Assembly (NCBI RefSeq): GCF_044647545.1
Contig: NZ_CP172818.1
Length of the DNA: 64,000 bases
DNA from: Escherichia coli
GTDB lineage: Bacteria; Pseudomonadota; Gammaproteobacteria; Enterobacterales; Enterobacteriaceae
Strand: one strand, 5' to 3'
The stretch's first letter is position 1, and each line of letters begins with the position of its first letter. The notes under the pieces were generated by a model. It ran no database searches. It was not told the DNA's origin and saw only the letters and a program-made list of their open reading frames with translations. Below, piece by piece: positions 22,974 to 54,466 of the stretch. The translations under genes and the position numbers were made by a program.

Positions 22974-25649
22974 TTAAGCGGATTTCTTCGCTTTTTTCTC
23001 AGCTTTAGCCGGAGCGGCTTCTTTTTTCGCTGCAGTTTCACCTTCTACATAATCACGACCGTAGTAGGTATCCAGCAGAATCTGTTTCAGCTCGGAGATC
23101 AGTGGGTAACGCGGGTTAGCGCCGGTGCACTGGTCATCGAATGCATCTTCAGACAGTTTATCCACATTCGCCAGGAAGTCTGCTTCCTGAACGCCAGCTT
23201 CACGGATAGATTTCGGAATACCCAGTTCAGCTTTCAGCGTTTCCAGCCATGCCAGCAGTTTCTCGATCTTAGCAGCAGTACGGTCGCCCGGTGCGCTCAG
23301 ACCCAGGTGGTCAGCAATTTCAGCATAACGACGGCGAGCCTGCGGACGGTCATACTGGCTGAATGCAGTCTGCTTGGTCGGGTTGTCGTTCGCGTTGTAG
23401 CGAATAACGTTACAAATCAGCAGGGCGTTTGCCAGACCGTGCGGAATATGGAACTGGGAACCCAGTTTGTGCGCCATTGAGTGACATACACCCAGGAAGG
23501 CGTTCGCAAACGCGATACCCGCGATAGTTGCTGCACTGTGAACACGTTCACGCGCTACCGGATTTTTAGATCCTTCGTGGTAGGACGCTGGCAGATATTC
23601 TTTCAGCAGTTTCAGCGCCTGCAGAGCCTGACCATCAGAGAACTCAGATGCCAGTACAGAAACATAAGCTTCCATGGCGTGAGTTACTGCGTCCAGACCA
23701 CCGAAAGCACACAGGGACTTCGGCATGTCCATAACCAGGTTGGCATCGACAATCGCCATATCCGGGGTCAGCGCATAGTCTGCCAGCGGATATTTCTGAC
23801 CAGTAGCGTCGTCAGTTACAACCGCAAACGGAGTGACTTCAGAACCTGTACCAGAAGTGGTGGTGACAGCGATCATTTTCGCTTTCACGCCCATTTTCGG
23901 GAACTTGTAGATACGTTTACGGATATCCATAAAGCGCAGCGCCAGTTCTTCGAAGTGAGTTTCCGGATGTTCGTACATGACCCACATGATCTTCGCGGCG
24001 TCCATCGGGGAACCACCACCCAGCGCGATAATCACGTCTGGTTTGAAGGAGTTTGCCAGTTCTGCACCTTTACGAACGATGCTCAGGGTCGGGTCAGCTT
24101 CTACTTCGAAGAAGACTTCAGTTTCAACGCCTGCTGCTTTCAGTACGGAAGTGATCTGATCAGCATAACCATTGTTGAACAGGAAGCGGTCAGTCACGAT
24201 GAGCGCACGTTTGTGGCCATCAGTAATCACTTCATCCAGCGCGATTGGCAGAGAGCCACGGCGGAAGTAGATAGATTTCGGAAGTTTGTGCCACAACATG
24301 TTTTCAGCTCGCTTAGCAACGGTTTTCTTGTTGATCAGGTGTTTCGGACCAACGTTTTCAGAGATGGAGTTACCACCCCAGGAACCACAACCCAGAGTCA
24401 GGGAAGGTGCGAGTTTGAAGTTATACAGGTCACCGATACCACCCTGAGAAGCCGGGGTGTTAATCAGGATACGAGCGGTTTTCATTTTCTGACCGAAGTA
24501 AGAAACGCGAGCCGGTTGGTTATCCTGGTCAGTGTACAGGCAAGAGGTATGACCGATACCGCCCATAGCTACCAGTTTCTCTGCTTTTTCTACCGCGTCT
24601 TCGAAATCTTTAGCGCGGTACATTGCCAGAGTTGGGGACAGTTTTTCATGTGCGAACGGTTCGCTTTCATCAACAACGGTCACTTCACCGATCAGAATCT
24701 TGGTGTTTTCTGGTACAGAGAAGCCTGCCAGTTCAGCAATTTTATAGGCTGGCTGACCAACGATAGCCGCGTTCAGCGCACCGTTTTTCAGGATAACATC
24801 CTGAACAGCTTTCAGCTCTTTACCCTGCAACAGATAGCCGCCGTGGGTTGCGAAACGTTCACGTACTGCGTCATAAACAGAGTCAACAACAACAACAGAC
24901 TGTTCAGAAGCACAGATTACGCCGTTGTCGAAGGTTTTGGACATCAGCACAGATGCAACTGCACGTTTGATATCAGCAGTTTCATCGATAACAACAGGCG
25001 TGTTACCCGCGCCTACACCGATAGCTGGTTTACCGGAGCTGTATGCGGCTTTAACCATGCCCGGACCACCAGTCGCGAGGATCAGGTTGATGTCTGGGTG
25101 GTGCATCAGTGCGTTAGACAGTTCAACCGAAGGTTGATCGATCCAGCCGATCAGATCTTTCGGAGCACCGGCAGCGATAGCAGCCTGCAGAACGATATCA
25201 GCTGCTTTGTTGGTTGCATCTTTTGCACGCGGGTGCGGGGAGAAGATAATGGCGTTACGGGTCTTCAGGCTGATCAGCGATTTGAAGATAGCAGTTGAAG
25301 TCGGGTTAGTGGTCGGAACGATACCGCAAATAATACCGATGGGTTCAGCGATAGTGATGGTACCAAAAGTGTCGTCTTCAGACAGAACACCACAGGTTTT
25401 TTCATCTTTATAGGCGTTGTAAATATATTCAGAAGCAAAGTGGTTTTTGATCACTTTATCTTCGACGATACCCATGCCGGATTCGGCAACGGCCATTTTC
25501 GCGAGTGGGATTCGAGCATCTGCAGCAGCCAGAGCGGCGGCGCGGAAGATTTTGTCTACTTGCTCTTGAGTGAAACTGGCATATTCACGCTGGGCTTTTT
25601 TTACACGCTCTACGAGTGCGTTAAGTTCAGCGACATTAGTAACAGCCAT
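22974..25649 (-). CDS. adhE: Bifunctional acetaldehyde-CoA / alcohol dehydrogenase AdhE (891 aa)
   Basis: 891-aa [57 protein letters not shown]... Confidence 0.97.
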
Positions 25650-26125
25650 AATGCTCTCCTGATAATGTTAAACTTTTTTAGTAAATCATCTGCTCGAATA
25701 CGAGAGTATAGTCAGTGCGGTGATGATTTGCTTAACCGATGGAAATCAAAAGCTTACTCGCGCTCACACTCACTGTGATTTACTAAAAGAGTTTAAACAT
25801 TAGAGTTATTATCTCTAATGCGTCACTTCCAGGTGGCGTAAGCAAGATTACTCACTTCTGGGTACTGATTACGTGATCCAAATCAAATTTTTGCAAAGCT
25901 GACACCTTTCAGCATCGCTTTTCGCCATTATAGCTAACAGTTAATAAATTGTAGTATGATTTGTTGGCTACATTAGCATGTTTTGCACAACTAGATAACA
26001 ATAACGAATGATAGCAATTTTAAGTAGTTAGGAGGTGAAAAATGCTGTCAAAAGGCGTATTGTCAGCGCGTCTTTTTAACCTTATTTATGGCTAACATTA
26101 TCCGGCTTTTGCTTCGGAGCTAACC

Positions 26126-26773
26126 GTGATTCAGACCCTTTTTGATTTTCCCGTTTACTTCAAATTTTTCATCGGGTTATTTGCGCTGGTCAACCCGGTA
26201 GGGATTATTCCCGTCTTTATCAGCATGACCAGTTATCAGACAGCGGCAGCGCGAAACAAAACTAACCTTACAGCCAACCTGTCTGTGGCCATTATCTTGT
26301 GGATCTCGCTTTTTCTCGGCGACACGATTCTACAACTTTTTGGTATATCAATTGATTCATTCCGTATCGCCGGGGGCATCCTGGTGGTGACAATAGCGAT
26401 GTCGATGATCAGCGGCAAGCTTGGTGAGGATAAACAGAACAAGCAAGAAAAATCAGAAACCGCGGTACGTGAAAGCATTGGTGTGGTGCCGTTGGCGTTG
26501 CCGTTGATGGCGGGGCCAGGGGCGATCAGTTCTACCATCGTCTGGGGTACGCGTTATCACAGCATTAGCTATCTGTTTGGTTTCTTTGTGGCTATTGCTT
26601 TGTTCGCTTTATGTTGCTGGGGATTGTTCCGCATGGCACCGTGGCTGGTACGGGTTTTACGCCAGACCGGCATCAACGTGATTACGCGTATTATGGGGCT
26701 ATTGCTGATGGCATTGGGGATTGAATTTATCGTTACTGGTATTAAGGGGATTTTCCCCGGCCTGCTTTATTAA
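26126..26773 (+). CDS. ychE: MarC-family inner-membrane protein YchE (215 aa)
   Basis: 215-aa hydrophobic ORF MIQTLFDFPVYFKFFIGLFALVNPVGIIPVFISM... Confidence 0.85.
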   Translation: MIQTLFDFPVYFKFFIGLFALVNPVGIIPVFISMTSYQTAAARNKTNLTANLSVAIILWISLFLGDTILQLFGISIDSFRIAGGILVVTIAMSMISGKLGEDKQNKQEKSETAVRESIGVVPLALPLMAGPGAISSTIVWGTRYHSISYLFGFFVAIALFALCCWGLFRMAPWLVRVLRQTGINVITRIMGLLLMALGIEFIVTGIKGIFPGLLY

Positions 26774-26786
26774 TTCCTTTCAATTG

Positions 26787-26812
26787 AAACGGAGCTGCCA
26801 TGCTCCGTTTAC
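26787..26812 (+). terminator. Candidate terminator hairpin after ychE
   Basis: aaacggagc-tgccat-gctccgttt hairpin; only a short T run follows, so intrinsic termination is uncertain. Confidence 0.4.
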
Positions 26813-27506
26813 TTCGTCATTATTTTTACTTTGTTCCCGCGCAGTTATCAAAAGCAAAAGGAATAGGTAAAAATATTCTTCTCAAATTACAGTTAGTTAT
26901 AAGGATTTCCCTAACTGCTTCTCCTCACCATCATGTTATTTTCGCCACATCATAATCCTGGGCTTGCTGAAGAATAATTGAAATGATATTAGTAATTCCA
27001 CTACCTTTGGTAGAGGAACTAAATAATAATCAATTGTTAAATTATTGTGCATTTCACTACTGGAACTGTAATCAGAAAAGAGAGACATGCTTAACCAACC
27101 TCTATTTGATTGAATTGAAAGATGTTTGTTAAGGCATGGATGCAAGCTATAGATTCTGATACGGTCAATAAAAGAGAATTGCTTAACAATTTTGCAAAAT
27201 GTATTGGCGAGTAAGAACCGCATTTGGTACTTTCCGGGCAACCGCCAGGCGATTCTTTATTGGTAATGAGAATAATTAACAATTAAAGATCGTCGCGAAA
27301 GAATAATGTGTCTCGACAGGGGAGACACAGTACGAATCGACATAAGGTGATCGTCTGAATCACCAGAATAAATAAAGTCGGTGATAGTAATACGTAACGA
27401 TAAAGTAACCTGACAGCAGAAAGTCTCCGAGCCTGTGCAGGGTCCCAATCCGGGATTACACATGCTGGTTAATACCAGTAATTATAATGAGGGAGTCCAA
27501 AAAACA

Positions 27507-29138
27507 ATGACCAACATCACCAAGAGAAGTTTAGTAGCAGCTGGCGTTTTGGCTGCGCTTATGGCAGGGAATGTCGCGCTGGCAGCTGATGTACCCGCAG
27601 GTGTCACACTGGCGGAAAAACAAACGCTGGTACGTAACAATGGTTCAGAAGTTCAGTCATTAGATCCGCACAAAATTGAAGGTGTTCCGGAGTCTAATAT
27701 CAGCCGAGACCTGTTTGAAGGCTTACTGGTTAGCGATCTTGACGGTCATCCGGCACCTGGCGTCGCTGAATCCTGGGATAATAAAGACGCGAAAGTCTGG
27801 ACCTTCCATTTGCGTAAAGATGCGAAATGGTCTGATGGCACGCCAGTTACAGCACAAGACTTTGTGTATAGCTGGCAACGTTCTGTTGATCCAAACACTG
27901 CTTCTCCGTATGCCAGTTATCTGCAATATGGGCATATCGCCGGTATTGATGAAATTCTTGAAGGGAAAAAACCGATTACCGATCTCGGCGTGAAAGCTAT
28001 TGATGATCACACATTAGAAGTCACCTTAAGTGAACCTGTTCCGTACTTCTATAAATTACTTGTTCACCCATCAACTTCACCGGTGCCAAAAGCCGCTATC
28101 GAGAAATTCGGCGAAAAATGGACCCAGCCTGGTAATATCGTCACCAACGGTGCCTATACCTTAAAAGATTGGGTCGTAAACGAACGAATCGTTCTTGAAC
28201 GCAGCCCGACCTACTGGAACAACGCGAAAACCGTTATTAACCAGGTAACCTATTTGCCTATTGCTTCTGAAGTTACCGATGTCAACCGCTACCGTAGTGG
28301 TGAAATCGACATGACTTATAACAACATGCCGATCGAATTGTTCCAGAAGCTGAAAAAAGAGATCCCGGACGAAGTTCACGTTGATCCATACCTGTGCACT
28401 TACTATTACGAAATTAACAACCAGAAACCGCCATTTAATGACGTGCGTGTGCGTACCGCACTGAAATTGGGTATGGACCGCGATATCATTGTTAATAAAG
28501 TGAAAGCGCAGGGCGACATGCCCGCCTATGGTTACACTCCACCATATACTGATGGCGCAAAATTGACTCAGCCGGAATGGTTTGGCTGGAGCCAGGAAAA
28601 ACGTAACGAAGAAGCGAAAAAACTGCTGGCTGAAGCGGGTTATACCGCAGACAAACCGTTGACCATCAACCTGTTGTATAACACCTCCGATCTGCATAAA
28701 AAGCTGGCGATTGCTGCCTCTTCATTGTGGAAGAAAAACATTGGTGTAAACGTCAAACTGGTTAACCAGGAGTGGAAAACGTTCCTCGACACCCGTCACC
28801 AGGGCACTTTTGATGTGGCCCGTGCAGGCTGGTGTGCAGACTACAACGAACCAACTTCCTTCCTGAACACCATGCTGTCGAACAGCTCGATGAATACCGC
28901 GCATTATAAGAGCCCGGCCTTTGACAGCATTATGGCGGAAACGCTGAAAGCGACTGACGAGGCGCAGCGCACAGCTCTGTACACTAAAGCAGAACAACAG
29001 CTGGATAAGGATTCGGCCATTGTTCCTGTTTATTACTACGTGAATGCGCGTCTGGTGAAACCGTGGGTTGGTGGCTATACCGGCAAAGATCCGCTGGATA
29101 ATACCTACACCCGGAATATGTACATTGTGAAGCACTAA
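27507..29138 (+). CDS. oppA: Periplasmic oligopeptide-binding protein OppA (543 aa)
   Basis: ORF 27435-29138; the known start MTNITKRSLVAAGVLAALMAGNVALA (signal peptide) is at 27507. Confidence 0.95.
   Translation: MTNITKRSLVAAGVLAALMAGNVALAADVPAGVTLAEKQTLVRNNGSEVQSLDPHKIEGVPESNISRDLFEGLLVSDLDGHPAPGVAESWDNKDAKVWTFHLRKDAKWSDGTPVTAQDFVYSWQRSVDPNTASPYASYLQYGHIAGIDEILEGKKPITDLGVKAIDDHTLEVTLSEPVPYFYKLLVHPSTSPVPKAAIEKFGEKWTQPGNIVTNGAYTLKDWVVNERIVLERSPTYWNNAKTVINQVTYLPIASEVTDVNRYRSGEIDMTYNNMPIELFQKLKKEIPDEVHVDPYLCTYYYEINNQKPPFNDVRVRTALKLGMDRDIIVNKVKAQGDMPAYGYTPPYTDGAKLTQPEWFGWSQEKRNEEAKKLLAEAGYTADKPLTINLLYNTSDLHKKLAIAASSLWKKNIGVNVKLVNQEWKTFLDTRHQGTFDVARAGWCADYNEPTSFLNTMLSNSSMNTAHYKSPAFDSIMAETLKATDEAQRTALYTKAEQQLDKDSAIVPVYYYVNARLVKPWVGGYTGKDPLDNTYTRNMYIVKH

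Positions 29139-54053: not shown

Positions 54054-54466
<413 letters not shown>

Follow-up and report, generated by a model that had tools for sequence, protein, structure and literature searches.

The question raised by this locus is why a long gap of low GC content lies in front of oppA, and what this gap contains. In the window (the whole stretch of E. coli DNA analysed, 64,000 nt in length), the ORF list and the RefSeq annotation give the gene order adhE (on the minus strand), ychT (a small gene), ychE and oppABCDF, and this adhE-ychT-ychE-oppA synteny is the arrangement of E. coli. We conclude, with a probability of about 0.9, that the region between ychE and oppA is the control region of oppABCDF as published for E. 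coli K-12, of which the parts would be a terminator of ychE, some 190 bp of operator DNA lying upstream, a pair of promoters, sites for several regulators and a long leader. As such the region is already known and ordinary, and nothing found here alters the published picture. The gain of the present analysis is that the published elements have been placed on window coordinates, and that the architecture appears to be kept family-wide with covariation support for the structure of the leader. The oppA locus sets the level of the oligopeptide transporter, and hence the uptake of nutrient peptides and the sensitivity to toxic peptides and some aminoglycosides; its leader is a textbook-grade case of integration, with Lrp, ArcA, FNR and Fur acting on the DNA, and GcvB, MicF, Hfq, RNase E and polyamines on the RNA.

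Boundaries, composition and conservation of the ychE-oppA spacer

The ychE stop lies at 26773 and the oppA start codon at 27507-27509, the latter in agreement with the frame in the ORF list and with the N-terminus MTNITKRSL as anchored by tblastn, leaving a noncoding gap of 733 bp (26774-27506). The promoters and RNA elements described below lie on the plus strand unless otherwise mentioned. An AT-rich gap of about 700 bp between these two genes, the starting point of the preliminary description, was thus confirmed. Of the bounds then given, 26813-27506, the end was exact but the start falls just past a terminator-like hairpin of ychE, AAACGGAGC-tgccat-GCTCCGTTT (26787-26811; RNAfold dG -14.9 kcal/mol), which begins 14 nt beyond the ychE stop codon and was passed over by a simple terminator scan because it is followed by no clean T-run. 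The GC content of the spacer is 0.374 as against 0.495 for the whole 64-kb window, where an equal AT-richness was found in just 1.2% of 733-bp sliding windows; the most AT-rich part is the first ~470 bp (26774-27240), with a GC content of 0.34-0.36.

The spacer was matched in 5423 of the 5426 complete E. coli genomes. Beyond E. coli, all 76 Enterobacteriaceae species in which the retrieved contig contained both genes carry a spacer of 664-878 bp with a GC content of 0.34-0.45, between flanks of about 0.50, and the long AT-rich gap can hardly be due to chance. The conservation is a mosaic: the conserved blocks coincide with elements described below, namely the P1 and P2 promoters, the Fur box (a block at 27262-27280 centred on ATGAGAAT), the sites for RNase E, MicF and Hfq, and the Shine-Dalgarno sequence, and include in addition the segment +15 to +54 of the P1 transcript, while the stretches between blocks are close to random divergence (22-30% identity). 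To judge from these alignments, the whole control architecture of oppA is conserved across the Enterobacteriaceae.

Transcription starts and promoters

In K-12, two starts of oppA transcription, P1 (+1) and P2 (+246), have been mapped by primer extension, giving leaders of about 511 and 266 nt, respectively (Carrier, Lalaouna & Masse, RNA Biol 2023, PMC9988348). Using the primer sequences of that study, we transferred the K-12 coordinates to the window, a published position +n corresponding to 26995+n; the K-12 spacer has 4 extra nt at 27018/19 relative to the window strain. The T7-oppA primer EM4528, whose first base is that of the +341 cleavage site, begins at 27336, and the reverse primer of the P1 promoter fusion has its end at 27000. 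By this transfer P1 starts at about 27000 and P2 at about 27241; the AUG becomes +512, and the leader about 511 nt long. The published Hfq site (+484 to +492) served as a cross-check and falls on a conserved ARN block at 27479-27487. The transferred positions are those of the K-12 starts, good to about 1-2 nt. A long 5' leader of oppA, as expected beforehand, is therefore borne out by the K-12 primer extension and by the primers that map here; of the 'long untranslated region' then described, however, only ~510 of the 733 bp is leader, and the rest is the ychE terminator together with promoter and operator DNA. P2, the Fur box and the RNase E, MicF and Hfq sites were all absent from that description.

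The P1 promoter region (26934-26999) includes an upstream block, TGTTATTTTC, followed by a putative -35 element TTGCTG (26964-26969), a 17-bp spacer and an extended -10 element TGaTATTAG (26984-26992); the hexamers TTGCTG and TATTAG were assigned from the mapped start. Per 10 nt, this region is 62-97% identical to its counterparts in 71 non-Escherichia species, the conserved pattern among relatives being CTTGCTG ... GAAATGATATTAGT, of which GAAATGATATTAGT is nearly invariant. The P1-proximal leader and operator block at +15 to +54, GTGCTAAATAAT..CAATTGTTAAATT (27014-27053), shows 79-91% identity across genera. For the P2 promoter (27164-27240), with the upstream block AAAAGAGAAttgcTTAACAAtTTTGCAAAATGTA, the probable hexamers are the -35 TTGGCG (27204-27209) and the -10 within the extended element TGgTACTTT (27225-27233). 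This region is 62-93% identical across genera, and its conserved pattern, including ~40 bp upstream, reads AAAAGAGAA..TTAACAA.TTTGCAAAATGTATTGGCG ... TTTGrTACTTTCCGG. Both would be sigma-70-type promoters with extended -10 elements. A simple promoter scan, in which predicted sites were no more numerous than in shuffled sequences, missed both P1 and P2, since the hexamers are imperfect in both and P1 lacks T at hexamer position 6.

Structure of the leader RNA

For analysis of the leader RNA, the segment 27300-27512 was aligned with 73 orthologues (MAFFT, alignment A1) and the consensus structure was predicted by RNAalifold. The consensus comprises 32 pairs in six helices, and 17 of the 32 pairs are changed on both sides. 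Standard pairs are formed in 96.2% of the cells, compared with 30-52% after the partners had been slid by 1-3 columns; the cells changed on both sides number 263 versus 36-89, and the covariation score is 0.382, a value reached by none of 500 shuffles, versus at most 0.115. G-U pairs are frequent and would read as A-C in the opposite strand, which assigns the structure to the oppA (plus) strand. The covariation is independent evidence for transcription, and for selection at the RNA level, of sequence lying over 200 nt upstream of the AUG. The fold of the single sequence is mildly better than those of its shuffles (z = -1.9) and differs from the consensus.

Hairpin 1 (27307-27329) has a conserved loop, GACAGGG(G), on a covarying stem, of which all four outer pairs are changed on both sides in 15-29 sequences each; the lone 'terminator' given by the scan, on the minus strand at 27329-27307, is this same hairpin and was rejected, the G-U pairs placing it on the plus strand. 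In hairpin 2, GGUGAUC / GAAUCACC (27346-27364), 5 of the 7 pairs are changed on both sides and 96.5% of cells are paired, and in hairpin 3, CCUGACAG ... CUGUGCAGG (27409-27441; 27409-27416 with 27433-27441), the corresponding values are 4 of 7 and 95.4%. Hairpin 4, GUCCC-aaucc-GGGAU (about 27442-27456), comes from the single-sequence minimum free energy fold, with CCCC/GGGG variants seen by eye in other genera; it has no covariation score because the MAFFT columns are shifted there. Hairpin 5, CUGGU-uaau-ACCAG (27465-27478; 27465-27469 with 27474-27478), is paired in 98.6% of cells, and its closing pair is CG in 30, UA in 26 and UG in 14 sequences. In the sixth helix, AUCGAC (27336-27341) of the RNase E site pairs with GUCGGU (27377-27382) of the MicF target core, enclosing hairpin 2; 99.3% of cells are paired, and since both sides are invariant, covariation speaks neither for nor against it. 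If this 6-bp helix is formed, the binding of MicF and the processing by RNase E, or an OppX-like release, would be structurally coupled. A permissive scan of 25600-27700 with Rfam 15 yielded two hits, a Tetrahymena snoRNA and a plant miRNA (E = 0.34 and 0.94), both far below the gathering scores and rejected as chance level; no Rfam family covers the leader. In the model we favour, the last ~200 nt of the leader would fold into five conserved hairpins that present single-stranded landing pads.

RNase E cleavage, MicF pairing and the putative A/U-rich enhancer

The element formerly known as oppA 'P3' (+341) has been identified as an RNase E cleavage site in K-12 (PMC9988348). In the window this site, GA|AUCGAC, lies at 27334-27341 with the processed 5' end at 27336, as defined by primer EM4528; its CGAC is invariant in 74 species and GAATCGACG is conserved there. 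After the cut at 27336, the 3' ~170 nt would present structured spacers and three single-stranded pads, for MicF, Hfq and GcvB.

For the pairing analysis, the gcvB and micF sequences were taken from MG1655 and their seed regions were scanned over 30-nt windows of the leader; folding of full-length GcvB or MicF against the leader was dropped, as it gave meaningless 'duplexes' of 200 nt. The best duplex of MicF nt 1-26 was found at 27366-27389 (-20.2 kcal/mol), an energy reached by none of 100 shuffles, and in agreement with the published site at +372 to +392/3. The position of the best MicF site, -150 to -131, is shared by 58 of 62 species, and within it AAAGTCGGTGAT is 93% conserved, AAAGTCGGTGATAG being among the conserved blocks. 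In K-12, the pairing of MicF with oppA was supported by lead probing, EMSA and compensatory mutants, and MicF was found to activate OppA-LacZ through this pairing, from ~120 nt upstream of the AUG, neither opening an inhibitory structure at the ribosome-binding site nor altering mRNA stability (PMC9988348). Next to this site is the A/U-rich putative translational enhancer (27394-27413, flanked by primers EM5095a/b), the segment deleted in oppA-delta399; this deletion decreased OppA-LacZ by 46% and abolished the effect of MicF (PMC9988348). The length of the A/U-rich enhancer differs among species. In the proposed mechanism, MicF bound at 27366-27389 would raise translation by way of the adjacent enhancer, as in K-12.

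The main product of this segment could instead be a free small RNA of the OppX type, released from the 5' UTR and sponging MicF as in Salmonella, where the oppA 5' UTR is the reported source of OppX-L, -M and -S (410, 190 and 109 nt), according to the account cited in PMC9988348. The family-wide conservation of the MicF site, the two preceding hairpins and the RNase E site is as this proposal would have it. In K-12, however, no stable 5' UTR fragment was detected, and MicF activates OppA-LacZ through the pairing verified by compensatory mutations (PMC9988348); the RIL-seq chimeras of K-12, as far as described in that source, reach beyond the OppX boundaries. The two sets of studies are in conflict, by the same account, on whether MicF regulates oppA or the leader sponges MicF, and we consider the free small RNA an unlikely main product here.

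The translation initiation region

Within the control region favoured here, the last leader segment carries the elements for translation initiation. The Hfq distal-face (A-R-N)n site, published as +484 to +492 from footprint and toeprint analyses in K-12, corresponds to 27479-27487 and sits in a nearly invariant block, CAGTAATTATAATGAG. It is followed by the Shine-Dalgarno sequence GAGGGAG (27489-27495), as read from the sequence, 11 nt before the AUG and conserved among relatives as GAG(T)GGAG. In the work of Igarashi, as cited in later papers, this 11-nt distance is linked to polyamine stimulation, and polyamines reportedly remodel the SD/AUG region.

The preliminary description had named the ribosome-binding region of oppA as a target of GcvB and proposed to look for pairing around 27450-27510. 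The best R1 duplex within 26774-27600 was indeed found at 27497-27521, CCAAAAAACAAUGACCAACAUCACC (C/A-rich spacer, AUG and first codons), with an energy of -23.1 kcal/mol. Since 18 of 100 shuffles reach that energy, as the G/U-rich R1 pairs promiscuously, the energy alone is not significant. Across relatives the best R1 site between -500 and +40 overlaps the RBS/AUG in 40 of 62 species; for both the GcvB and MicF sites, we take this position across relatives to be a stronger argument than the pairing energy. The R1-dependent repression of oppA at the initiation region has been shown in K-12 (PMC9988348), and the claim that GcvB targets this region is supported.

Three modes of control might thus converge on the start codon: Hfq bound to the ARN tract at 27479-27487 would block the binding of the 30S subunit, resulting in repression; GcvB R1 would repress by pairing with the C/A-rich spacer and the AUG at 27497-27521; and polyamines would remodel the SD/AUG region, in which the Shine-Dalgarno sequence lies unusually far (11 nt) from the AUG.

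Strain differences at P1

The last base of the putative -10 hexamer of P1, at 26992, is T in K-12 (TATTAT) but G in the window strain and the other E. coli lineages examined (TATTAG), as it is in the non-Escherichia species, which are 97% identical to the window in the 10-nt block that holds it. The K-12 41-mer with the T allele was found in 341 of the 5426 genomes, and those sampled were mostly laboratory derivatives of K-12. In sigma-70 -10 elements no base is more conserved than the T at the last position of the hexamer, and for this reason K-12 may carry an up-promoter allele of P1. If so, the description of P1 as the strongest promoter, and the leader dosage that results, may be a peculiarity of K-12.

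The window strain lacks AGTG between 27018 and 27019, inside the family-conserved motif GAATGTGCTAAA (+19 to +22). Except for this deletion, its spacer is identical to that of FDAARGOS_497. The deletion is common to just two complete genomes, BS-01 and HS-01, of which BS-01 has a different spacer haplotype. With G at 26992 and 4 conserved nt missing at +19 to +22, the strength of P1 could differ from that in K-12. The deletion abuts the CTAA (27019-27022) where the sequenced MG1655 carries IS5, 19 nt downstream of the P1 start, and 47 genomes contain the IS5 junction in the spacer; the deletion may represent an IS5 footprint, but equally a recurrent mutation or a sequencing error. A poly(A)-like stretch of ~410 nt elsewhere in the 64-kb window is absent from all E. 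coli genomes and calls for caution about assembly quality. Another insertion element, ISSen4, is found in the ychE-oppA spacer of NCTC122.

At P1, then, both K-12 (by its -10 allele, and by IS5 in MG1655) and the window strain (by its 4-nt deletion) deviate from the family consensus. A wider reading, by which the leader would act throughout the family as a modular riboregulator and not as a passive long UTR, with laboratory K-12 as an atypical representative, appears doubtful to us. It would draw on the putative helix between the RNase E site and the MicF target and on the P1 allele of K-12, for neither of which we found an earlier description.

DNA-binding regulators and the question of H-NS

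On the DNA side, Lrp, ArcA, FNR and Fur, as regulators tied to nutrition and redox state, would determine how strongly P1 and P2 are transcribed. Lrp gives two ChIP peaks at the oppA region and represses oppA, the repression being relieved by leucine (PMC10127797), and ArcA activates oppA directly, with co-regulation by FNR mentioned (PMC3798270). The FNR ChIP-seq summit at 1298775 in U00096.2 (PMC3688515) corresponds to -431 from the oppA ATG, or about 27076 in the window. Near this summit, the candidate FNR-like half-sites TTGAT-TGAA-TTGAA (27106-27119; 8 of 10 matches by eye) may serve as a lead. For Fur, a strong cluster (21.5 bits) has been described at position -233 relative to the oppA ATG and confirmed by gel shift in K-12 (PMC2189734). 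In the window the Fur box, GGTAATGAGAATAATTAAC (27262-27280), lies just downstream of the P2 start and has 15 of 19 matches to GATAATGATAATCATTATC, with its core, ATGAGAAT, conserved.

The sequence TTAACAATT occurs in three copies within the 64 kb, all in the ychE-oppA spacer, and the third copy coincides with the Fur box; a direct repeat, AAGAGA..GCTTAAC, is also found in the spacer. When the ArcA, Fur, IHF and Lrp motifs were compared by eye with these repeats, the Fur box was the sole documented site that coincided.

The preliminary description had also pointed to an H-NS-bound regulatory region. In its full form, this explanation holds that the gap is mainly an H-NS-bound, silenced AT-rich spacer, its length and composition arising from nucleoid-protein binding and not from an RNA leader. 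H-NS generally prefers AT-rich DNA, and the spacer belongs to the lowest 1.2% of 733-bp windows in GC content, its first ~470 bp being the most AT-rich. Against this, no report of H-NS binding or of hns-dependent expression of oppA was found in the literature searched, which documents Lrp, ArcA, FNR and Fur at oppA; oppA is expressed, with P1 and P2 mapped in K-12 (PMC9988348); and the synteny and block conservation in 76 species, together with the RNA covariation, are unexpected for silenced filler DNA. The spacer looks unlike typical H-NS-silenced foreign DNA, and the claim is unsupported. H-NS could bind in addition to the documented regulators, but as the main explanation of the gap it is quite improbable.

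Open reading frames in the spacer

The three minus-strand ORFs listed earlier as shadow ORFs (26936-27241, 27091-27282 and 27257-27463) are present exactly as described, and that judgement has been borne out. For none of the six spacer ORFs of at least 30 aa are the start, frame and stop kept in any of 71 non-Escherichia species, and the longest (101 aa) carries stops or frameshifts in other Escherichia species (alignment labels L007, L009, L010, L011 and L031); the coding potential of all six was rejected on account of this nonconservation. Most E. coli genomes have, in the RefSeq/PGAP annotation of this spacer, a 98-aa 'hypothetical protein' (WP_001211520/525; minus strand, 26936-27223/27241), which is most probably a false-positive call. 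That the spacer codes for a protein, be it this one or a small plus-strand upstream ORF, has next to nothing in its favour beyond this annotation and the existence of the ORFs, considering also that the 4-nt deletion in the window strain shifts the frame of the 101-aa ORF and leaves the surrounding conservation unaffected, and that the minus-strand ORF overlaps P1, P2 and the conserved operator blocks of the opposite strand.

Comparison with known systems

The closest known system is the oppA 5' UTR of K-12 (Igarashi et al. 1997; Pulvermacher et al. 2008; Carrier et al. 2023), which is the same locus, with a spacer 98.2% identical to that of the window strain. Its primers, which mark the end of the P1 fusion, the cleavage at +341, the MicF site, the delta399 enhancer and the RBS region, map here in collinear order, and the sites for GcvB, MicF and Hfq are the same in sequence or almost the same. 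The differences are the G for T at 26992, the missing AGTG and 8 other single-base differences.

In Salmonella enterica, the MicF sponge OppX derives from the 5' UTR of oppABCDF (Matera et al. 2022, as cited in PMC9988348). The orthologous spacer of S. enterica subsp. diarizonae and arizonae is 762-763 bp long; in the Salmonella leader the MicF target AAAGTCGGTGATAG is identical, GAATCGACG is conserved, and compensatory changes preserve hairpins 1 and 2. As that account has it, MicF is titrated in Salmonella by a stable fragment of the leader, whereas in K-12 no stable fragment is seen and MicF activates oppA translation (PMC9988348). By analogy, we infer that the transcription starts, the cleavage and the regulatory effects described in K-12 and Salmonella would hold in the window strain.

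Among more distant systems, dppA and gltI are, like oppA, targets of GcvB with a C/A-rich element that pairs with the G/U-rich R1, this element lying at the RBS in oppA. The leaders of rpoS, flhDC and csgD are likewise several hundred nt in length and receive several Hfq-dependent sRNAs of opposite sign (PMC9988348). The oppA leader differs from leaders of this type in that it holds within itself a promoter, P2, together with the Fur box, and in that MicF, in K-12, acts from ~120 nt upstream of the AUG with no inhibitory RBS structure being opened and with mRNA stability unchanged.

Annotated reading frame and repeated motifs in the ychE-oppA spacer

Within the 733-bp ychE-oppA spacer (26774-27506), most E. 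coli genomes carry a RefSeq/PGAP annotation of a 98-aa 'hypothetical protein' (WP_001211520/WP_001211525) on the minus strand at 26936-27241. The frame lacks conservation even inside Escherichia and overlaps the operator blocks and both oppA promoters, P1 and P2 (starts at about 27000 and 27241, transferred from K-12), and this CDS is probably a false gene call. Just upstream of ychE, RefSeq annotates YchT, a small protein of 17 aa (MLSKGVLSARLFNLIYG), and its reading frame is intact here at 26042-26095 on the plus strand.

The 9-mer TTAACAATT, with an expected count of 0.88 over the whole 64-kb window, is present in three copies, all inside 253 bp of the spacer: at 27032-27040 on the minus strand, and at 27183-27191 and 27276-27284 on the plus strand. 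The first two are located in blocks conserved across genera; the copy at 27276-27284 overlaps the Fur box (27262-27280).

In the oppA leader, the RNase E site AUCGAC (27336-27341) and GUCGGU (27377-27382), within the core of the MicF target (27366-27389), form a candidate helix that encloses hairpin 2 (27346-27364). Across 74 species, 99% of cells are compatible with this pairing, and because both sides of the helix are invariant, it lies beyond the reach of a covariation test.

Poly(A)-like run and the 4-nt deletion in the P1 leader

A nearly pure A run of about 410 nt was observed at 54054-54466, between rluB and cobO, and no other part of the window is as AT-rich as its region (GC about 0.24 over 733 bp). 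The run was found in no complete E. coli genome, and the best matches span 1385 nt versus 1801 nt in the window. It appears to be either an artefact of assembly or sequencing or a low-complexity block that was inserted, and it reduces confidence in small indels elsewhere in the assembly.

At 27018/27019 the 4-nt sequence AGTG (+19 to +22 of the P1 leader) is deleted within the motif GAATGTGCTAAA, which is conserved in all 76 Enterobacteriaceae species with an orthologous spacer. Among 5426 complete genomes, the deletion is otherwise found only in BS-01 and HS-01, and the spacer haplotype of BS-01 differs. The deletion directly adjoins CTAA (27019-27022), the IS5 site of MG1655. It may be a footprint left by IS5, may have arisen as a recurrent mutation, or may be an error.

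Comparison with K-12 and other strains

In sequenced MG1655, this CTAA, which lies 19 nt past the P1 start, holds an IS5 insertion (insH21; NC_000913.3 1299499-1300693), so that P1 and oppA are parted by 1.2 kb. This junction was detected in 47 complete genomes, and NCTC122 carries ISSen4 at another place in the spacer. Position 26992, within the inferred P1 -10 element, is G (TATTAG) in the present strain, in the other E. coli lineages examined and in non-Escherichia Enterobacteriaceae, which show 97% identity to the window across that 10-nt block. The K-12 laboratory strains carry T (341 of 5426 genomes), giving an inferred -10 of TATTAT, and the P1 measurements in the literature are throughout of K-12 source.
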